NCBI GenBank assembly: GCA_964468425.1
Contig: CAYXSZ010000069.1
Span: 1-7,505, forward strand
Direction: 5' to 3'
Source of the DNA: Candidatus Woesearchaeota archaeon
Lineage (GTDB): Archaea > Nanobdellota > Nanobdellia > Nanobdellales > Nanobdellaceae
DNA: 7,505 bases
Of this stretch, positions 1 to 7,505 are shown piece after piece (position 1 is the first letter of the stretch; the number at the start of each line of letters is the position of its first letter). A program made the translations under genes and the position numbers. The notes beneath the pieces are model-generated. The model made no database searches, had not been told where the DNA came from, and saw only the letters and a list, made by a program, of their open reading frames with translations.

Positions 1-620
1 ATGTAACCTTCGGTTACGGAGACTGTGATGTATTCATCGGGTCTATCGTGATCTCCAATTACTTTTTGAACCTTTGGATCCCAAACTACCGGGTGCTCTC
101 CTTTAGTAATTAAACCTTTTTCTTTAAGTTTTCTATATTGCCAGTGAACGAACTTTGAATAAGGTTTATTCAAGTAAGTAGTGTAGAACTCCCTCCTCCA
201 ATCTATCGAGAACCCGAACTTCCTAAAAGCTTCTCTATTTTTATCAACAAAGTAAAGTGCCCACCCTTCTGGAGTTTTTAGCTTGTCCCACTCTTCTTCA
301 GGAATCCCGTACGATTTAAGTTCTTCTATTATTTTTGGATCTCCTTCAGAAAGTCTCATCGCTTTTCCAACAATTGGAGCTCCAGTTATATGCCAACCTT
401 GTGGCCAAAGAACATTGTAACCTTTCATTCGCTTGTACCTCGCAAGGAAATCTGCTCTTGAATAAGTGAACGCAGAACCGAGATGAAGCAAACCGTTTAC
501 GTAGGGGTAAGGAACTGTAATGAAGAACTTGGGCCTTTCGTCGGGTTCAGGTTGATATACTTTCTTTTCTTCCCAAATCCTCTGCCATTTGGATTCAATT
601 TCCTTCAGATTGACTGTCAT
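1..620 (-). CDS. leuS: Leucyl-tRNA synthetase, N-terminal part (partial; the CDS continues beyond the left window edge)
   Basis: Not in the supplied ORF track because it is open at the edge. I hand-translated the minus strand from ATG at 620-618: MTVNLKEIESKWQRIWEEKKVYQPEPDERPKFFITVPYPYVNGLLHLGSAFTYSRADFLARYKRMKGYNVLWPQGWHITGAPIVG...REFYTTYLNKPYSKFVHWQYRKLKEKGLITKGEHPVVWDPKVQKVIGDHD.... The frame has no stop down to position 3. It carries the class I HIGH-type signature (HLGS) and the archaeal LeuRS blocks W-H-I-T-G-x-P-I, REFYTT, FxxWQxxKLKEKG and GDHD. Confidence 0.9.
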   Translation of the reverse strand, partial: MTVNLKEIESKWQRIWEEKKVYQPEPDERPKFFITVPYPYVNGLLHLGSAFTYSRADFLARYKRMKGYNVLWPQGWHITGAPIVGKAMRLSEGDPKIIEELKSYGIPEEEWDKLKTPEGWALYFVDKNREAFRKFGFSIDWRREFYTTYLNKPYSKFVHWQYRKLKEKGLITKGEHPVVWDPKVQKVIGDHDRPDEYITVSVTEGY

Positions 621-642
621 AAGAATAATATATCTCGATTAA

Positions 643-650
643 ATTTATTA
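643..650 (-). promoter_or_regulatory. Putative TATA box for leuS (minus strand TAATAAAT)
   Basis: An 8-nt A/T box is centred about 26-27 nt upstream of the leuS ATG at 620. The geometry fits an archaeal promoter driving a leaderless mRNA. Confidence 0.4.
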
Positions 651-771
651 ATAGTCTTGAGGTGGAGAACTGGGTCTTCGCAGTTACTGGAGATGGTAAT
701 TTGTGAAAAATTGTGCAGGGGTTTTGAAAAACTATCTGAAACCAGGAAATCGTAAAAGCTGAAAGTCGGGA

Positions 772-1338
772 GTGGCACTGTGCTTAAGTAAGTTTTATAT
801 TCTTAAAGTTAAAGTATACTATGTGAGCTCTCGCTGTTCGTACATAAAATTATCCTCGTCAGAGGCGAAAGAGCTCGCTAGCAGAGCATGCAATGTTAAA
901 TCGTGCGAAAGAGAAATTCTGTCTGCAATTCTCGATTCAATACCAGATTATATGTTTCATATACTCAGAGTCTTTTATAATTCTCATGTAGAATTCGTAA
1001 CGCTGTCGTCTGGATCTTATTATGAGGATTTCGAAGAGATTTTTGTATACAAATACCTATATGAAACTCGTCCCTTGGATGAAATAGTTAGTGATAGAAA
1101 GTATCCCATCGTTCTTAGCATTATCGAAGTGACAAATTCTCCTCGTAAAATTTTTTCGGGATATAGATTCGTAAAAAATAAAGACGAAACGCTTCTTAGG
1201 TTTTCGATAGGATATAAAATAAAAGGCGTTTATAGAGAAGCGAACAGCTTAGAAGATTTAATACGCTTGCTAGAGGGATTAAGGTCTCTTAGAAAGTATG
1301 TATTCGAGGAAGGTTACAAGCTATGTGGAACAACTTAA
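772..1338 (+). CDS. Hypothetical protein with no recognisable family; start uncertain (GTG 772 as in the ORF track, or more likely GTG 823)
   Basis: This is a long open frame on the strand opposite leuS with a K/E/Y/I-rich composition like its neighbours. It has no in-frame ATG before residue 62. A TATA-like box at 793-800 lies inside the tracked ORF, about 26 nt upstream of the in-frame GTG at 823. I recognised no conserved motif. Confidence 0.5.
   Translation: MALCLSKFYILKVKVYYVSSRCSYIKLSSSEAKELASRACNVKSCEREILSAILDSIPDYMFHILRVFYNSHVEFVTLSSGSYYEDFEEIFVYKYLYETRPLDEIVSDRKYPIVLSIIEVTNSPRKIFSGYRFVKNKDETLLRFSIGYKIKGVYREANSLEDLIRLLEGLRSLRKYVFEEGYKLCGTT
793..800 (+). promoter_or_regulatory. Putative TATA box (TTTTATAT) for the hypothetical ORF
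   Basis: The box is centred about 26-27 nt upstream of the in-frame GTG at 823. It shows the same geometry as the other promoters in the window. Confidence 0.4.
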
Positions 1339-1356
1339 ACAGTTACAAAATACTTG

Positions 1357-1361
1357 TTTTT
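1357..1361 (+). terminator. Oligo-T tract, possible archaeal intrinsic termination signal
   Basis: A TTTTT run sits 19 nt after the TAA stop at 1336-1338, followed by a second T-rich stretch (cttttcc). Archaeal RNA polymerase terminates at oligo-T. Confidence 0.25.
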
Positions 1362-1476
1362 GAATCGCTTTTCCATATCTAAATTTTAGCTCTACAGCTA
1401 TCCGATGGAAAGGGTTCTCGAATTTTAAAGCTGTTCCCGAGTTTGAAGGTAAATAGAAATGACTAATACTAAAATG

Positions 1477-1484
1477 ATTTAAAA
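1477..1484 (+). promoter_or_regulatory. Putative TATA box (ATTTAAAA) for the rps3ae operon
   Basis: The box is centred about 25-27 nt upstream of ATG 1505, so the first cistron would be leaderless. Confidence 0.4.
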
Positions 1485-1504
1485 CTTTTAATCCTGCATA
1501 AGTT

Positions 1505-2113
1505 ATGGGTTACAACAAGAAATATGCTGAATGGAACAAGAAAGTTTGGTACGAAATAATCGCCCCTCAAGAAATATTTAACGAAGCGGTAATTGGAGAA
1601 ACTCCCGCGTACAAGCCAGAGCAGGTTATAGGAAGAACTGTAGACTTGAATTTAGCTTTCTTGACTGGAAACTTTAGGCATCAGAACATGAAAATTATTT
1701 TCCAAATTTACAAGGTCTCCAGTCTCAAGGCGTATGCAGACATCAAGGAAGTCTCCCTTTACGACGCGTACATCAGAAGAATAGTTAGAAAAGGAACTTC
1801 CAGAATAGACGACTCCTTCGAGGTAGAAACGAAGGATGGCATCAAAGTTAGAGTAAAACCTTTGGTAGTTACAAGATATAGAGCACACTACAGGCAGAAG
1901 TCGGCTATAAGAAAGGCTTACAAAGAGTTCTTACTTCAAAAAATCCCTGAATTTAACTACAAAGAACTCGTGGAGAAGGTTATTAATAAAGAAATTCAAA
2001 GCGAAATCTTTCCTGTTTTAAACAAGATCTTCCCAGTTCAGCACGTTGAAATCCGCAGACTCGTGCGAGAGACTCCTATAGTTCAATTAGAGGAGATCCA
2101 GGCTAAAACCTAA
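1505..2113 (+). CDS. rps3ae: 30S ribosomal protein S3Ae (eS1)
   Basis: The 202-aa protein contains KKVWYEIIAPQ, IGETPA, IGRTV, LTGNF, YIRRIVRKGTSRID, TKDG-x-KVRVKP, IRKAY and VEIRR. Together these match the S3Ae/eS1 family pattern along the full length. Confidence 0.95.
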   Translation: MGYNKKYAEWNKKVWYEIIAPQEIFNEAVIGETPAYKPEQVIGRTVDLNLAFLTGNFRHQNMKIIFQIYKVSSLKAYADIKEVSLYDAYIRRIVRKGTSRIDDSFEVETKDGIKVRVKPLVVTRYRAHYRQKSAIRKAYKEFLLQKIPEFNYKELVEKVINKEIQSEIFPVLNKIFPVQHVEIRRLVRETPIVQLEEIQAKT

Positions 2114-2532
2114 TGCTCTTTGTTTTTTATAAGTTAAAAGCTGAAGAAAACTTGCAGGACATCCTCAAAATTGCTAGGGAGTTGAAGCTGGACGTCGCAT
2201 TCATTCCCAGAGAATCTATGAATATCGATTACGAAAAACTCAGAAATATAAAGCATTTTGATCTTTTAGATTACGATTCCTTTTTAAAGAAGGTTGGAAG
2301 TAAAAAGATAGCCTTCATAGAAACTTGTGGAACAAGGTTCGTCCACGAGGTTGATTTATCTGAGTTTTCAGCTTTTGTCTTCGGTTCAGAAGACTATGGG
2401 ATAGATCCTTGCGACATAAAAAAAGCGAAGAACTATGAAGTCCTGAAGATCCCAATTCTTTCTGAAAGTTACAAGGTAGTTTCGAGTTTTGTGATGGTAC
2501 TAACAGAGTTAAAGCTTCAAGGTATTCTATAA
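2113..2532 (+). CDS. Small SPOUT (SpoU/TrmL-like) RNA methyltransferase, divergent
   Basis: The 139-aa layout resembles minimal TrmL/SpoU enzymes. The N-terminal block NLQDILKIARELKLDV resembles motif 1. FVFGSEDYGI matches the LvFGxExxG motif. LKIPILSESYKVVSSFVMVLTE matches the trefoil-knot IPm...SlNvs.a..i.lyE motif, with SYK in place of SLN. The start overlaps the rps3ae stop by 1 nt (TAATG at 2111-2115). Confidence 0.6.
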   Translation: MLFVFYKLKAEENLQDILKIARELKLDVAFIPRESMNIDYEKLRNIKHFDLLDYDSFLKKVGSKKIAFIETCGTRFVHEVDLSEFSAFVFGSEDYGIDPCDIKKAKNYEVLKIPILSESYKVVSSFVMVLTELKLQGIL

Positions 2533-2534
2533 AT

Positions 2535-3683
2535 ATGATCGTCAAAGCCAAGGTTTCTGAAGTGACTGAAGCCTTCCGGGATACGAAGAGCAAGCTACTC
2601 TTGCGAGTTTTGGAGGAAGGAAAACGCGTATTCGCGCTTAAACTACCAAACTTCAAGGGTCTTCTCGGCTTTAACCTTCTCCCAAATCGTAGAATCGGAA
2701 CAGAGCTTGCAGATCTTGTAAAGAGATTTGGTTTAAGGGGTATCTTGCATTCAGATGAACTTCCCGCTTATGGAATTTCGGAGTTGGAGGTAGAAAAAGT
2801 TAAGAAACTCCTTTCTTGTGAAGAGAACGATGCTTTTGTCTTGATTCTTGTTGAAAATGAAGAAAAAGCTAAAACAATTTTCAAGCACATTGTAAACCGA
2901 TTGAACGAAATGATAGAAAAAATCCCAAAGGATACGCGAAAAGCTAATGAAGATGGAACTACTTCTTTCCTCAGACCGCAACCAGGTTCTGCGAGAATGT
3001 ATCCAGAGACGGACTTGCCTCTAATTCTTGTAGATCGTAAAGAAATCGATAGAAGTTCTTATAAAGAGATCGTTTACAAAATAACTCACGGAGACAAAGT
3101 TTATGAATTGAAGTTAGCAAGATTAAAAGAAAAAAATGTAGATTTGTATCTAAAGCTTAAAGAAAACGAAGATTTGTTCGTTCTCGACTCTCTAGATCCC
3201 GAATTTCGAAGAGAAGTCCTAAAGAAACTTGGATTCAACGAAAGCCAGATTGAGAACATTCTTTGGTCGGACAACCCAGATTTGTTTGAAAAATACGCTA
3301 GAAAACTGAAGCCATCCCTCATTTATTACATCTACTTTATGCTTCCTTCCGAAGTTGAAAGCGAGTTTGGCGAAAAGGTTTATCCCGACGAAGACTTCAT
3401 AGAGCAAGCTGCTGACCTCATCTCTAAAAAATTAATCACTAGAGACGCTTTAAAAATTCTTCTTTACGAATACTCCAAAACTCGGAAGCCTCTTAAAGAG
3501 ATTATAGAAGAAAAGGGGTTGAAGAAAGTTTCTGGATCCGAGCTTGAGAATAAAATAGACGAGTTACTTAGCAAATACAAAAATTTAGAAAAGAAAAAAT
3601 TAATCAATAAAATTCTAAGCGAGCTAAGACTTATCGCCGATCCTAAAGAGATAATAGAAATTGTAAATCGTAAACTCAAATAA
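2535..3683 (+). CDS. gatE: Glu-tRNA(Gln) amidotransferase subunit E, C-terminal fragment only (insertion domain, last cradle strands, helical domain and YqeY-like tail)
   Basis: The 382-aa protein contains LKLPNFKGLLG, NRRIGTELAD, GILHSDELPAYGISE, DAFVLILVENE, TRKANEDGTTSFLRPQPGSARMYPETDLP, then a helical K/E-rich tail. These are hallmark GatE blocks from the middle to the C-terminus of the roughly 620-aa archaeal protein. The N-terminal catalytic half is absent. Confidence 0.85.
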   Translation: MIVKAKVSEVTEAFRDTKSKLLLRVLEEGKRVFALKLPNFKGLLGFNLLPNRRIGTELADLVKRFGLRGILHSDELPAYGISELEVEKVKKLLSCEENDAFVLILVENEEKAKTIFKHIVNRLNEMIEKIPKDTRKANEDGTTSFLRPQPGSARMYPETDLPLILVDRKEIDRSSYKEIVYKITHGDKVYELKLARLKEKNVDLYLKLKENEDLFVLDSLDPEFRREVLKKLGFNESQIENILWSDNPDLFEKYARKLKPSLIYYIYFMLPSEVESEFGEKVYPDEDFIEQAADLISKKLITRDALKILLYEYSKTRKPLKEIIEEKGLKKVSGSELENKIDELLSKYKNLEKKKLINKILSELRLIADPKEIIEIVNRKLK

Positions 3684-4606
3684 TGCTTTGCTCGTTTTGC
3701 AAAAATAAGGCAGTTTACAAAAGACAATCCACCTTTTACTGCAGGGAGCACTTCATTAATTATTTTTTGGAAAAAGTACGCAAAACTATACAAAATTTTT
3801 CTCTGCTTGAACCGGGAGAGACTGTTGGAGTCGGGATTTCGGGCGGAAAGGACTCCGTAAGTCTTATGCATGTTCTTTCTCAGCTAAAAGAACTTAAGCT
3901 AAATTTAATAGGAATACACATAGACGAGGGAATCAAAGGATATCGAGATGTTCTGACAAATTTTCTTGAGGAGCTTGCGAGGAAATACAAATGGAATATT
4001 AAAATTTACTCCTTTAAAGATTATTTTGGGTTCACCCTTGATGAAGCGGTTAAGTTGGTTGATGTGAAACCGTGTACAATCTGCGGTGTCTGGAGGCGCT
4101 GGATTTTTTGGAAAGCCTCCCAAGATTTAAAGCTGGACAAAGTCGCGGTAGGACATAATCTTAACGACGAAGCTCAAACTTTCATCATAAATCTCCTGGA
4201 AGGAAACTTGAAAGATCTTGCTAAAGGGGGACCAAAAGTTGGAATTGTAGAAGAATTGTTCGTTCCAAGAGTCAAACCTTTTTTCCTAGTTACCGAAAAG
4301 GAAACAACAATTTATTCTCTTCTCAACGAATTTTATCCGCCAACAAGAGAATGTCCTTACATTAGAGGACAAACTAGAGATTTTATTCGCTCTAAGCTTT
4401 ACTCCTTGGAAAACACCCATCCCGGATTTCAAGAATCTTTAATAAATGGTTACATAAATGAAATAAAAAAACTTAGAAATATTTATCAGCGAAGGATTAA
4501 GTCCGAAGTAGTCCGCTGCTCTGTTTGCGGTTATCCATCGACCAGGGAACTCTGTCGGGCGTGCGAGCTTAGGGAGATCGTAGAAAAAAATGCAGGAAAA
4601 AATTAA
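3683..4606 (+). CDS. PP-loop ATPase, tRNA 2-thiouridine synthetase of the TtuA/NcsA (Ncs6/Ctu1) family
   Basis: The protein has an N-terminal zinc finger (CSFC...C..H) and a PP-loop (SGGKDS). It has Fe-S ligand candidates CTIC plus ECPY, a GHNLNDEAQT block, and a C-terminal zinc finger (CSVC...CRAC). The start overlaps the gatE stop by 1 nt (TAATG at 3681-3685). Confidence 0.85.
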   Translation: MLCSFCKNKAVYKRQSTFYCREHFINYFLEKVRKTIQNFSLLEPGETVGVGISGGKDSVSLMHVLSQLKELKLNLIGIHIDEGIKGYRDVLTNFLEELARKYKWNIKIYSFKDYFGFTLDEAVKLVDVKPCTICGVWRRWIFWKASQDLKLDKVAVGHNLNDEAQTFIINLLEGNLKDLAKGGPKVGIVEELFVPRVKPFFLVTEKETTIYSLLNEFYPPTRECPYIRGQTRDFIRSKLYSLENTHPGFQESLINGYINEIKKLRNIYQRRIKSEVVRCSVCGYPSTRELCRACELREIVEKNAGKN

Positions 4607-5060
4607 CAAAAAAAGACTCTGGGTTTCCATTTTCCTGGCGTCTTTAGTTCTTATTTGGCTAGACTTCTTTGTGGGAAACGCTCTTAGCGAGAAGAAACCT
4701 CTTTTGCTTGGAATCTACGATGTCTCTTTTTTAGGATATTCGCTAGCCGTTTATCCCCTTCTCCTTTTATCTTTTCTAACAATTCCCATAATTCTTTATC
4801 CAGAGCGGTGGAAGCTCTGGATTTTTGTTGGATTAATGATATGGACGCTAAATGACGCCTTGTGGTTCGTAGTCCGACCTGACGAGTGGATAAAATTTTG
4901 GTTTTTCAAGGGAGAAGTAATTTTTAAGTGGTGCTTGATAAACAACGAAGTCTGCATTTACTCAACAGATTATTTAATGGCTTTCTCAATTATAACTCGT
5001 CTACTTATTGGAATATACATCTACAAGAAGTGGATTCAGGGAAGGGCGTGCTCTTCATAG
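4590..5060 (+). CDS. Hypothetical integral membrane protein, about 4 TM segments, Trp-rich
   Basis: Four hydrophobic stretches are visible: WVSIFLASLVLIWLDFFV, FLGYSLAVYPLLLLSFLTIPIILY, LWIFVGLMIWTLNDALWFVV and YLMAFSIITRLLIGIYIY. The N-terminus is positively charged. There are 10 Trp in 156 aa. It overlaps the upstream CDS by 17 nt. I recognised no family. Confidence 0.55.
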   Translation: MQEKINKKRLWVSIFLASLVLIWLDFFVGNALSEKKPLLLGIYDVSFLGYSLAVYPLLLLSFLTIPIILYPERWKLWIFVGLMIWTLNDALWFVVRPDEWIKFWFFKGEVIFKWCLINNEVCIYSTDYLMAFSIITRLLIGIYIYKKWIQGRACSS

Positions 5061-5084
5061 CTCCGCCCCGATGGATTTCATCAT
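5036..5084 (-). ncRNA. C/D box sRNA (2'-O-methylation guide), canonical archaeal architecture
   Basis: The minus strand reads ATGATGA (C, 5084-5078), aatccatcgggg (12 nt), CGGA (D', 5065-5062), gct, ATGAAGA (C', 5058-5052), gcacgcccttcc (12 nt), CTGA (D, 5039-5036). The C and D boxes are perfect, C' and D' each have one mismatch but keep the GA, and the two 12-nt spacers are symmetric and GC-rich. The core is 49 nt. Confidence 0.7.
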
Positions 5085-5090
5085 ATTTTA
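5083..5090 (+). promoter_or_regulatory. Putative TATA box (ATATTTTA) for the trm5-family gene
   Basis: The box is centred about 26 nt upstream of ATG 5112, which fits a leaderless mRNA. It abuts or overlaps the C box of the antisense-oriented sRNA. Confidence 0.4.
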
Positions 5091-5111
5091 AGCTTTGGAG
5101 CTAATTAAATA

Positions 5112-6155
5112 ATGGCTTTCGATATAATCGGAGACATCGCGATCCTAAAACCTCCTCTTAAGATGTCTGAGGAAGAGTATATCAAATATATTCAAGAAAA
5201 ACACAAATATATTCAAACAATTTTGCTCCAGGAAACGGACGTTTTACCTCCTTATCGCGTCCCTAAGTATAAAATTCTTTGGGGAGAGAACAAAACCGAG
5301 ACTGTTCATAAAGAATACGGTTTGAGGTTTAAAGTAGATGTTGTTCGAGCTTATTATTCGCCTAGGCTTGCAGAAGAGAGAAAGAGAATCGCAAGCCAAG
5401 TTAAAGATGGTGAAAAAGTTTTAGTTATGTTTGCAGGAGTCAACCCTTACTCAGTTTACATTGCAAAATATGCAAATCCTGAAATCATTTATGCTGTTGA
5501 GTTAAATCCCTTTGCTTTTAAGTATGCTTTTGAGAATGCTAAGTTAAACAAAGTTGAAAGTAAAATTACAACTATCTTGGGAGATGTGAGAAAAGTAGCA
5601 CCTTTTATTCAAGTTTTATCAAACAAGGACGCAGTTGTTCACTGCAAGCGAGATTACCTTTTAGACCTGCTCGATGCAAATCCAGAAATCAATAGGTGTT
5701 TTCTGGTAGGCTTTGACGAAGCCTACTATGATTTGGTTGAAAAAATAAGAGCTAGGAAAAAATACTTGGTTGTTTACGAGGACTTAGACTATGCGCAGTT
5801 CGATGGAGTCTTACTAAACCAAGACAACCTAGTTCTTCGAGACTACGAAGAAAATTCTCATATAGAGTTCGAAAAATTCGGCATCGAATTCGATCGGATC
5901 ATTATGCCTCTTCCAAAAGAAGCTGACACTTTCCTAGACGTCGCGATCCCATTGATAAAGGAAGGTGGAACAATCCACTTATATCAATTCTTTTTCGAAG
6001 AAGAAATTCCTGAAAAAGCTAGAGAAATTTTAGATAAATATTCGAAGCTTTTGAAATTCGAGTACGAGATTTTAAATGTTCGAAGGGTTGGAGATATAGC
6101 TCCTAGACAGTATAGAGTTTGCATAGACTTCAAAGTTACTCAAAAGCTTTTCTAA
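5112..6155 (+). CDS. trm5: Trm5/TYW2 (Met-10+ like, COG2520) family tRNA methyltransferase, lacking domain D1 and carrying an internal insertion of about 95 aa
   Basis: FDIIGDIAIL marks the D2 domain start. WGENKTETVHKEYGLRFKVDVVRAYYSPRLAEERKRIA is the family signature. VLVMFAGVNPYS is SAM motif I, IYAVELNP is motif II, ILGDVRKV is motif III, and FDRIIMPLPKEADTFLD is the motif IV region. GGTIHLYQF and APRQYRVCIDFKV follow. By recollection of M. jannaschii Trm5, ILSDVREVDVKGNRVIMNLPKFAHKFID is collinear with this protein except for residues about 164-259. Confidence 0.85.
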   Translation: MAFDIIGDIAILKPPLKMSEEEYIKYIQEKHKYIQTILLQETDVLPPYRVPKYKILWGENKTETVHKEYGLRFKVDVVRAYYSPRLAEERKRIASQVKDGEKVLVMFAGVNPYSVYIAKYANPEIIYAVELNPFAFKYAFENAKLNKVESKITTILGDVRKVAPFIQVLSNKDAVVHCKRDYLLDLLDANPEINRCFLVGFDEAYYDLVEKIRARKKYLVVYEDLDYAQFDGVLLNQDNLVLRDYEENSHIEFEKFGIEFDRIIMPLPKEADTFLDVAIPLIKEGGTIHLYQFFFEEEIPEKAREILDKYSKLLKFEYEILNVRRVGDIAPRQYRVCIDFKVTQKLF

Positions 6156-7185
6156 TCTCCCGAGCAGTTTCCTTTGGTAGAGTATAGGCTAGCTTTTCCA
6201 AGTGAAGAGTCTCCAAATACCCTTCAGCAGTCGTTCCTTGTTCTGAGGAAAACCTTGAAGCTATTCGTATTATTGGATAAACTCCAGGCTCTTTAACAAA
6301 CGTAGAGTCTATTATACTCATGTTAAATGCAATCAGATCTAAGGTATTTATATATTTGACTAAGAATTCGTACAATTCTTTAACGAAACCTTCTAAGTTG
6401 ATTTCTGCCATATTGAAGATTCCAAAGCTTTTAACAAGTCCAAGTACATCGTGATGTCCAAAGGGAGAAAAACTAGCAACCCAATCTATGAATTTCCCCG
6501 AGTAAATCACCCTATCTTTAAAGTTTAACTCGGATTGCACATAGTCTTCGACCAGCGAACTCTTAAATCGTGCAAAGTGTTCCTTAGTCTTCTCAAGCAA
6601 GATCCTATGATAGTTTGTTGGAATGGTATTTTGTTCTATTTGGAAATGTAAATGTTGCTGAGATGCTCCCGCGAGTAAAGTGTGATTCAAGTGGATGTAA
6701 ACGAATTTGGAACTTGAATCGTTTCTGTAGTTGGAGCTTACGAACTCTTTTATAAGCTTAAAAGAGATTATGAGATCGTAAACTGGGATTTCGTCTATGA
6801 ACTCCGCGTGCTTTTCAACGGTTGGTATCACTATTGCATGATATTTAGAGTACAACTTATCGGGTACGAATAAGATGGAATTCTGTCTTGATAACTTGGA
6901 TATCTTGAACCTATTGTCTATAGAGAGTCTTAAGAGTTTGTTTATGTTTTGCTTACAAAAGGGACAAGTTTTGTCGGCGCTAATCATCAAGATGTACTCA
7001 GATTTGTTAATTTTTCTCACCTTCTTGAAGGGATTTATCTTGTTCCAGAAGCCAGTAATCGGATCCTTTCGAAGTTCTAGGTATTCTGGGCGAATAGCGT
7101 CGTCCCCAGGCTCGATGCAATGATAAGGGATGATAACTCGCTCAAAGGGAAGGGAATTTTTACCATATTGGAGTTCCCTTTCCAT
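6136..7185 (-). CDS. galT: Galactose-1-phosphate uridylyltransferase-like nucleotidyltransferase (GalT branch of the HIT superfamily)
   Basis: LRKDPITGFWNKINPFKKVR corresponds to RYNPLTGxW...P.R..RP. CPFC is the zinc CxxC motif. AGASQQHLHFQI corresponds to the active-site GxSxxHxHxQ. LVEDYVQSEL corresponds to MLVDYVQREL. WVASFSPFG and the C-terminal GYLETL...LPKETAREIRKA correspond to GYEML...LTAEQAAERLRA. The protein is collinear with GalT over the full length. Confidence 0.8.
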   Translation of the reverse strand: MERELQYGKNSLPFERVIIPYHCIEPGDDAIRPEYLELRKDPITGFWNKINPFKKVRKINKSEYILMISADKTCPFCKQNINKLLRLSIDNRFKISKLSRQNSILFVPDKLYSKYHAIVIPTVEKHAEFIDEIPVYDLIISFKLIKEFVSSNYRNDSSSKFVYIHLNHTLLAGASQQHLHFQIEQNTIPTNYHRILLEKTKEHFARFKSSLVEDYVQSELNFKDRVIYSGKFIDWVASFSPFGHHDVLGLVKSFGIFNMAEINLEGFVKELYEFLVKYINTLDLIAFNMSIIDSTFVKEPGVYPIIRIASRFSSEQGTTAEGYLETLHLEKLAYTLPKETAREIRKAFE

Positions 7186-7210
7186 TAGAATATCAATGAG
7201 CCTTGAAAGA

Positions 7211-7218
7211 TTTTAATA
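7211..7218. promoter_or_regulatory. Shared or bidirectional TATA box (TTTTAATA / TATTAAAA) between the galT-like gene and tRNA-Ala
   Basis: The centre at about 7214.5 is 26-27 nt from the mature tRNA 5' end (7241). It is about 29 nt from the ATG of the divergent gene (7185). A purine-rich BRE-like gaaaga sits immediately 5' on the plus strand. Confidence 0.5.
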
Positions 7219-7240
7219 GATGAACTGCAAGGAGTTTAAA

Positions 7241-7312
7241 GGGCCCGTGGTCTAGCGGTAGGACGCCGGACTCGCTATCCGGAGATCCCGGGTTCGAATC
7301 CCGGCGGGTCCA
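7241..7312 (+). tRNA. tRNA-Ala (anticodon CGC), 72 nt, no encoded CCA, no intron
   Basis: Hand-folded cloverleaf: acceptor GGGCCCG/CGGGTCC with the G3:U70 alanine identity pair and A73. D arm GTCT-AGCGGTA-GGAC. Anticodon arm CCGGA-CTCGCTA-TCCGG. Variable loop AGATC. T arm CCGGG-TTCGAAT-CCCGG. The sequence after A73 is TTC, so CCA is not encoded. Confidence 0.95.
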
Positions 7313-7505
7313 TTCCCTTCAATAAAATTAAGCAAAACGCATCGCTACATTAAACCAGCAAAGTAAGTTTCAGACGATGTTGGCACTCGAACTCCTCATC
7401 ATTTTATTAGACTTCCAAAAAATGTGTCGTGGCAATTGAAGGTTAAAACAATTCTAGAGAACATTTCTGCCTTTTTTCTGAGAACAGAGCTCATCATTAT
7501 ATTCA

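Follow-up and report, generated by a model that had tools for sequence, protein, structure and literature searches.

What is a segment of roughly 95 amino acids (aa) doing in the middle of the catalytic Rossmann domain of an archaeal tRNA methyltransferase? The question is raised by a gene on contig CAYXSZ010000069.1 (assembly GCA_964468425.1, Candidatus Woesearchaeota archaeon), of which positions 1–7,505 of the forward strand were analysed; this whole stretch of 7,505 nucleotides (nt) is referred to below as the window. The gene encodes a 347-aa protein of the Trm5/TYW2 family. We read it as a Nanoarchaeales aTrm5a/Taw22 enzyme whose insert was acquired in two steps and would serve as a non-catalytic accessory module of a structural or stabilizing kind, a role that we infer for the insert and a reading to which we assign a probability of roughly 0.55.

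Profile thresholds place the 347-aa protein in the Trm5/TYW2 family (PF02475, COG2520). In Pfam, the PF02475 match falls into two parts with a gap between them (E = 1.4e-51, 175.1 bits; cut-off 28), and PF25133, the D2 or TYW2 N-terminal domain, covers residues 2–60 (31.6 bits against a cut-off of 27.7). Both by sequence (phmmer) and by fold (Foldseek) its top relatives in the PDB are Trm5b and Trm5a. The protein has a class I Rossmann fold in a D2–D3 architecture, and the best Foldseek matches are Pyrococcus abyssi Trm5a (PaTrm5a) and Trm5b (PaTrm5b), Methanocaldococcus jannaschii Trm5 (MjTrm5) and Taw2, with E-values from 1e-18 to 2e-24.

Alignment with the solved structures locates the insert. 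In the phmmer alignments with PDB chains, residues 2–162 of the window protein correspond to residues 99–258 of P. abyssi Trm5b (5YAC) and residues 258–343 to 260–345, while for P. abyssi Trm5a (5WT1) residues 3–165 correspond to 86–250 and residues 259–342 to 253–331. Between the GDV motif and FDRIIMPLPK there are ≈91–95 extra residues, where the solved Trm5a and Trm5b structures have 1–3, and the insert is missing from every solved Trm5a, Trm5b and Taw2 structure. It occupies the β3–β4 crossover of the Rossmann fold, starting four residues past D158/V159 and ending eight residues before PLPK. A preliminary description, made from the letters of this DNA, had proposed that an insertion of about 95 aa splits the Rossmann domain, and both the alignments and the split PF02475 match bear this out. 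The peptide that it placed at nt 5601–5888 (residues 164–259) is exact, and our own boundaries are residues 163–258 (nt 5598–5885). It had also placed the insert in the loop beside the S-adenosylmethionine (SAM) and target-base pocket, and in the sequence the insert is indeed flanked by the residues that bind the adenine of SAM and by the catalytic loop. The acidity that it had noted corresponds to a net charge of −8 and an isoelectric point (pI) of 4.57; the rest of the window protein has a pI of 8.6.

The AlphaFold2 model of the full protein (115-sequence alignment) has a predicted local distance difference test score (pLDDT) of 94.9 and a predicted template modelling score (pTM) of 0.93. 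A helix (residues 159–168) begins in the core just ahead of the insert and is followed by a strand (174–177), a helix (180–189), a strand (193–199), a helix (203–210) and the strands 214–221, 232–235, 239–244 and 249–254, after which β4 of the core is found at 260–265. Blockwise pLDDT is 93–98 for residues 161–220 and 85–93 for residues 231–260, and confidence is low (67) only at residues 221–230. Such a high pTM implies a firm attachment of the insert to the core, not a loose tether. Modelled alone, residues 157–262 (21 sequences) gave the same secondary structure with a pLDDT of 89 and a pTM of 0.81, and this confident stand-alone model points to an autonomous subdomain. In our reading the segment is translated and, as modelled, forms a compact α/β subdomain that is predicted to fold by itself.

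The preliminary description had found no resemblance between the insert and any domain, and our searches agree with it. In Pfam, the insert alone gave a best E-value of 0.021, which is below threshold, and among PDB sequences its best match was an aminotransferase segment (E = 6e-4) without any family signal. When a profile of the insert core was run against 1.84 billion representative proteins, it returned only P0024, a member of the insert's own family. A k-mer-indexed search with just the insert as query missed even the parent protein, so its empty result carries no information. When the insert model was compared with the PDB by Foldseek, the best matches were NADPH domains of thioredoxin-reductase-like flavoproteins (E = 0.038, template modelling score (TM) 0.32). 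Kinship with the NADPH domains of thioredoxin reductase or ferredoxin–NADP reductase was rejected, as E is only about 0.04 and TM about 0.3 and the insert has no glycine-rich loop; we take the resemblance to be one of generic Rossmann-plus-meander topology. The insert matches no described protein domain by sequence or fold.

To which enzyme does the insert belong? Among 5.8 billion proteins, 2823 relatives were detected. Every relative whose match spans at least 85% of the query, and hence the insert, is 270–353 aa long and either metagenomic or from Nanoarchaeota, with Nanopusillus, Nanopusillaceae, Nanoclepta minutus and Nanobdella aerobiophila among the names. The other relatives are archaeal, mostly DPANN where named; they are either D1-less proteins of 250–290 aa or D1-containing proteins of ∼332 aa, and they aligned at the flanks only. 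In a scan of one genome per species, only the Nanoarchaeota loci L001–L005 and L007 had a match long enough for the insert. Locus L006 (Nanopusillaceae) ends at a contig edge after residue 198, and in the remaining 73 loci residues 2–345 of the query were fitted into ∼250 codons. Locus L007 lies on the Nanoarchaeum equitans chromosome, and its open reading frame (ORF) of 297 aa is NEQ228, which has 40–43% identity to the window protein over residues 1–339, a like architecture and a like insert site. Among the matches from named genomes, the closest relatives are Nanoarchaeota metagenome-assembled genomes, Nanopusillus, Nanobdella and N. equitans, and the nearest non-identical relatives of the window protein share at most 66% identity with it. 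Judged from sequence, the window protein is the Nanoarchaeales ortholog of N. equitans NEQ228 (aTrm5a/Taw22).

Two further traits fit an aTrm5a enzyme. The first position of the NPPY-type motif is held by P266, and this position has Pro or Thr in aTrm5a where Trm5b and Trm5c have Asn or Asp (PMC5113207). Furthermore, D1 is missing, as it is in most aTrm5a enzymes (PMC5113207, PMC7761594); the protein opens at D2, and the ORF upstream (4590–5060) is unrelated. Both the missing D1 and the PLP in place of the NLP of Trm5b had been read correctly in the preliminary description, the latter being confirmed by the alignment.

The active site was compared residue by residue using the phmmer alignment with PDB chains in native numbering, with roles taken from the literature (PMC5714064, PMC5113207; Table 1). 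Across 115 homologs of the family, the listed SAM-binding and catalytic residues are all invariant or nearly invariant; in the catalytic loop, L267 and P268 never vary and P266 hardly does. The catalytic machinery is intact, and the window enzyme should be catalytically competent. It would be a SAM-dependent enzyme that methylates N1 of G37 and, in tRNA-Phe, also C7 of 4-demethylwyosine (imG-14), giving isowyosine (imG2).

In the literature, dual activity of this kind, forming 1-methylguanosine (m1G) at position 37 and imG2, has been assayed only for NEQ228 and for P. abyssi PAB2272 (PMC5113207). NEQ228, produced in Escherichia coli from a synthetic gene, formed m1G on G37-tRNA and most likely imG2 on imG-14-tRNA in a thin-layer chromatography assay, and the imG2 product was confirmed by high-performance liquid chromatography–mass spectrometry for PAB2272 only (PMC5113207). 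NEQ228 also methylates heterologous Salmonella and yeast tRNA, and Urbonavicius et al. (2016) named it a bifunctional aTrm5a/Taw22 (PMC5113207). Since NEQ228 was made from a synthetic gene in E. coli, its insert belongs to an active protein. These data bear on two suggestions of the preliminary description. Altered specificity of the enzyme is not supported as proposed: the subfamily is already known to act on both G37 and imG-14, a trait linked with the Pro motif and not with the insert, and the specificity of the enzyme can be explained without the insert. The suggestion of a structurally novel variant stands for the insert, which is real and orphan, but not for the absence of D1 and the PLP motif, which are published aTrm5a hallmarks. 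As to whether comparable segments are common among characterised enzymes, only NEQ228 has one at this position, and the region matches no annotated domain, so the refuting condition set in the preliminary description applies only in part.

NEQ228 resembles the window protein in its lack of D1, in its MPLPK loop and in having its insert at exactly the same β3–β4 junction. The two inserts share the motifs A[NK]PE[IL] (AKPEL in NEQ228, ANPEI in the window protein) and E-x-YYDL[VL] (EEYYDLL and EAYYDLV, respectively), but that of NEQ228 is only ∼60 aa long and the window protein adds ∼40 aa of β-hairpins. P. abyssi Trm5a/Taw22 (PAB2272; 5HJJ, 5WT1) has the same D2–D3 fold (Foldseek E = 2e-24, TM 0.65) and shares the SAM-binding and catalytic residues as well as the first-position Pro. 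However, it has D1, its motif reads PTPK instead of PLPK, and its D243 and P260 are 17 residues apart, compared with 108 for D158 and P266 in the window protein. The highest sequence scores were seen for Trm5b (MJ0883, 2YX1/2ZZN; PAB0505, 5YAC), with 169 bits for 5YAC and 210 bits for the NCBIfam Trm5b model, and the motif flanks are nearly identical (FDRIIMPLPKEA in the window protein and DRIIMNLPKYA in Trm5b). Yet Trm5b has D1, an Asn in the NPPY motif and no insert, and it is described as a G37 N1-methyltransferase only. Taw2 (MJ1557, PH0793; 3A27, 3A25) and Taw21 (SSO2439) are like the window protein in their D2–D3-only architecture and fold, but differ in their reactions, which according to the literature are transfer of a 3-amino-3-carboxypropyl group for Taw2 and C7 methylation only for Taw21. 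The Taw2 structures have no insert, and phmmer aligned them to residues 3–162 or 6–155 of the query only (93–126 bits).

An in-frame insert of 58–102 aa is found at one common site in all Nanoarchaeales homologs (36/36), and the alignment of these 36 proteins divides it into two tiers (Table 1). The first tier has the consensus xPYIxYLxNxDGIIKxxxxYIxDxIESxxELN, in which D173, G174, D185, S189, and N194 are nearly invariant. The second tier has its full length only in the clade of the window protein (P0002–P0004, P0014 and P0024; inserts of 95–102 aa), is shorter or partial in P0006, P0007, and P0034, and is missing in Nanopusillus, Nanobdella, Nanoclepta, and Nanoarchaeum (inserts of 58–64 aa). 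Mean identity to the window protein is 26% for the insert versus 68% for the core, and the conserved insert positions are those of the hydrophobic core plus loop or turn residues. In every member the insert is acidic to near-neutral (pI 4.6–6.3, net charge −8 to 0), while the remainder of the protein is basic (pI 7.7–9.4). The distribution of the tiers is consistent with an origin in two steps, in which the ∼60-aa core would have been gained before the known Nanoarchaeales diverged and the ∼40-aa β-hairpin extension later, in the clade of the window protein.

The same site has received a different domain elsewhere. The Trm5a-like proteins P0116 (535 aa; locus L083:3001-4608) and P0082 (561 aa) both have ∼290 aa at the identical β3–β4 junction, between GD[AV]R and FDRIIMPLPK. 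The inserted region is a xylose-isomerase-like triosephosphate isomerase (TIM) barrel (PF01261; 37.2 bits in P0116 and 30.4 bits in P0082, cut-off 31.1) nested in a split PF02475, and this TIM-barrel part has no PDB relative by sequence. Both proteins have MPLPK and no D1, their closest named relatives among the 2823 proteins are from DPANN archaea, and they might be bifunctional enzymes. The TIM barrel is unrelated to the insert of the window protein, and its insertion was independent of the Nanoarchaeales event. The occurrence of unrelated domains at one junction indicates that the β3–β4 crossover accepts whole domains in independent lineages.

The enzyme family, the absence of D1, the Pro motif and the dual activity were known already, and the sequence of NEQ228, in which the insert can be seen, has been public for two decades. 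Three things are new here: the insert is recognised as a folded orphan subdomain that all Nanoarchaeales share, its history comprises two tiers, the long form belonging to the clade of the window protein, and elsewhere a nested TIM barrel occupies the same site. The word “insertion” is absent from PMC5113207, PMC4024628, and PMC7761594, though a mention of the NEQ228 insert is possible in the 2010 paper on the definition of the aTrm5a/b/c subfamilies.

In the reading that we prefer, the insert would lie firmly against the catalytic domain, at the edge on the SAM side, and so buttress a D1-less enzyme, and it might perhaps also shield an otherwise exposed cofactor. Such an accessory role is suggested by the fast divergence of the insert, its variable length, its acidic charge, the limitation of its conservation to hydrophobic-core and turn positions, and the insertion-tolerant site. 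We do not think that the insert is a primary RNA-binding element. Several observations nevertheless weigh on the other side. The insert is kept in every known Nanoarchaeales lineage, with the nearly invariant polar residues D173, D185, S189, and N194, and this could mean a specific function instead of mere tolerance. Regarding the subfamily, the protein did not reach the NCBIfam equivalog cut-off for Taw22 (NF047728, 170.9 bits versus 550) or that for Trm5b (NF047730, 210.1 bits versus 600), and its Trm5b score is slightly above its Taw22 score. Judged from their cut-offs, these models seem to have been calibrated on other lineages, and the match is broken up by the insert; as the cut-offs were not reached, the subfamily assignment rests on the Pro motif, the architecture and the orthology to NEQ228. 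In addition, cultivated Nanoarchaeales are thermophiles, and a need for D1 at 60–80°C would leave room for a D1-compensating role of the insert. In M. jannaschii Trm5, D1 matters only at these temperatures (PMC5372744).

The D1-compensating role can be put more strongly. The insert would then be, as the preliminary description suggested, a tRNA-recognition module that replaces D1, and it could provide extra anticodon or D-arm contacts for work at high temperature. The insert is confined to the thermophile-containing Nanoarchaeales, is retained in all of them with its few nearly invariant polar residues, and belongs to an enzyme without D1. The pTM of 0.93 implies that insert and catalytic domain keep a fixed position to each other, and the D2–D3 fragment of M. 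jannaschii Trm5 loses activity at 60–80°C, where the full-length enzyme stays active (PMC5372744). We still regard this alternative as unlikely. Published Trm5–tRNA contacts are mostly Lys/Arg salt bridges, whereas the insert carries a net charge of −8 to 0, and it is far more divergent than the core and ranges from 58 to 102 aa. Many DPANN homologs do without D1 and insert alike, the literature describes most aTrm5a enzymes as D1-less (PMC5113207, PMC7761594), and NEQ228 is active on heterologous tRNA from Salmonella and yeast (PMC5113207).

Somewhat more doubtful is a docking or regulatory surface, either as an acidic platform for a partner (e.g., Taw1 or Taw3) or as a lid over the adenine of SAM that would raise the cofactor affinity in a metabolically dependent symbiont. 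The acidity is consistent across the family, and the insert starts only four residues past the adenine-binding D158 and V159. In PaTrm5a crystals the cofactor is solvent-accessible, and the S-adenosylhomocysteine of a symmetry-related complex was accessible enough for base–base contacts with G34 of the tRNA (PMC5714064). According to the literature, the wyosine pathway of N. equitans is a minimal one with the three enzymes aTrm5a, Taw1, and Taw3 only (PMC4024628). There is, however, no evidence of a partner, and the low conservation of the insert would be unusual for a specific interface. About as doubtful is the bolder proposal that the insert is a new-fold domain that gives the D1-less nanoarchaeal Taw22 a second handle on substrates or partners, through the tRNA D-stem or elbow or through docking of Taw1/Taw3. 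If this were true, these thermophilic symbionts could not do without the function of the insert, and the β3–β4 crossover of Trm5a-type enzymes would be a general port for function-adding domains, with the nested TIM barrel of P0116 and P0082 as a parallel case.

A further idea, which fits any function of the insert, concerns its origin. The SAM-binding half of the Rossmann fold (β1-αA-β2-αB-β3) could have been duplicated in tandem, with the insert as a degenerate copy that landed exactly after β3. The AlphaFold2 model shows the same β-α-β-α-β order in the insert, and the ∼60 aa of the first tier come close to the ∼62 aa of the β1–β3 unit. Moreover, an in-frame 18-nt repeat (Table 1) is found at equivalent helix-to-strand junctions of core and insert, with 17 of 18 positions identical; such a repeat occurred in 0.2% of codon-shuffled genes, and NEQ228 reads AKPEL at the corresponding insert position. 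We nonetheless consider a duplication highly improbable and rejected it as unsupported, as both the profile and the pairwise tests were negative: profile–profile comparison of insert and core (hhalign) gave a probability of 0.3–0.4% and no in-register alignment, and pairwise protein similarity ends at ANPEI (p = 0.33). Most relatives read SGxELN and SKAKIIY at the two positions, a weak self-similarity in Nanopusillus lies in another register, and a DNA identity of 17/18 cannot be a relic older than the divergence of the family. The 18-nt repeat could be due to chance or to local micro-conversion.

Finally, split genes and unusual RNA processing are familiar features of Nanoarchaeota, and the window encodes only the C-terminal half of GatE, so the segment might be thought absent from the mature protein, as an intein, an archaeal bulge-helix-bulge mRNA intron or an assembly or frameshift artefact. 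Inteins have Cys or Ser at the N-terminal junction and His-Asn followed by Cys, Ser or Thr at the C-terminal one, and are typically longer than ∼130 aa; the insert is smaller (∼95 aa), starts with Ala and ends in FGIE followed by Phe, with no His-Asn and no intein junction residues. All these variants are effectively excluded, since the segment is in frame without a stop, identical proteins are encoded by independent contigs of different samples, the 36 homologs show protein-level conservation with codon-multiple indels, the predicted fold is confident, and recombinant NEQ228 with its insert is active (PMC5113207).

Several tRNA-related genes are found on the forward strand of the window, namely a small SpoU/TrmL-like methylase (2113–2532; weak match), the GatE fragment (2535–3683), an NcsA/TtuA-type tRNA thiolase (3683–4606) and the Taw22 gene. 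Neighbouring genes touch or overlap at their start and stop codons (2113/2113, 3683/3683, and 4590–4606). The GatE ORF (382 aa) covers positions 278–630 of NF003107 with the GAD and YqeY domains and is without the N-terminal catalytic part. The other half is not in the window, and the ORF looks like a piece of a split gene; split genes are typical of Nanoarchaeota. An ORF of 349 aa on the reverse strand (6136–7185) converges on the Taw22 gene, with whose 3′ end it shares 20 nt, and matches galactose-1-phosphate uridylyltransferase only weakly (histidine triad (HIT)-like; E = 4e-7, far below the cut-off). Two other forward ORFs, 772–1338 (188 aa) and 4590–5060 (156 aa), match no NCBIfam family, and the 156-aa product has, by eye, the look of a small multi-pass membrane protein.

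Table 1. Features of the Taw22-type gene in the window (all positions in nt of the window).
Feature	Position	Strand	Residues and remarks	Basis
Taw22-type gene	5112–6155	+	347 aa; Trm5/TYW2-family methyltransferase, predicted aTrm5a/Taw22 type and NEQ228 ortholog	
D2 domain	5115–5291	+	aa 2–60; no D1 before it	PF25133; residue 2 aligns with P. abyssi Trm5b residue 99
G37 recognition residue	5256–5258	+	R49 = PaTrm5a R133; guanine-specific, essential	Alignment; invariant in 115 homologs; role PMC5714064
Rossmann domain, N-terminal part	5301–5597	+	aa 64–162; strands β1–β3	PF02475 profile positions 1–101
General base and SAM carboxylate residues	5376–5381	+	E89-R90 = PaTrm5a E173 (general base), R174 (SAM carboxylate)	Alignment; invariant; PMC5113207, PMC5714064
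SAM motif I	5430–5438	+	F107-A-G109; F107 = PaTrm5a F191, SAM contact (adenine stacking)	
Direct repeat, copy 1	5470–5487	+	18 nt, ATGCAAATCCTGAAATCA; core, Y-A-N-P-E-I	
Ribose-binding residue	5499–5501	+	E130 = PaTrm5a E213	Alignment
Adenine-binding motif (N1/N6)	5580–5588	+	G157-D158-V159; D158, V159 = PaTrm5a D243, V244	
Inserted subdomain	5598–5885	+	aa 163–258 (∼95 aa); modelled as helix, then β-α-β-α-β, then three antiparallel strands	Alignment gap against solved structures; AlphaFold2
Insert, tier 1	5598–5750	+	aa 163–213, plus a short C-terminal piece; ∼60-aa core; all Nanoarchaeales homologs including NEQ228	36-protein alignment
Direct repeat, copy 2	5674–5691	+	18 nt, ATGCAAATCCAGAAATCA; insert, D-A-N-P-E-I; 204 nt (68 codons) downstream of copy 1, in frame	
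Insert, tier 2	5751–5873	+	aa 214–254; extra strand and β-meander, ∼40 aa; clade of the window protein	36-protein alignment
Rossmann domain, C-terminal part	5886–6146	+	aa 259–345; opens with strand β4 (FDRIIM)	Second PF02475 stretch; 258–343 align with Trm5b 260–345
NPPY-equivalent catalytic loop	5907–5918	+	P266-L-P268-K269; aTrm5a-type first Pro	Aligns with PaTrm5a P260-T-P262-K263 and Trm5b NLPK

The insert decorates a known enzyme in one lineage without making a new kind of enzyme of it, and it leaves the understanding of m1G37 and wyosine chemistry unchanged. N. equitans has no Trm5-type enzyme besides Taw22, which must therefore act on every G37 tRNA and in the wyosine pathway too. NEQ228, the one characterised D1-less Taw22, carries an unremarked orphan subdomain beside its cofactor pocket, and this bears on the interpretation of its biochemistry and on structural work. 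With no insert, 60 aa, 100 aa or a nested TIM barrel of 290 aa at one and the same site, these enzymes form a natural series that is well suited for testing the function of the insert.

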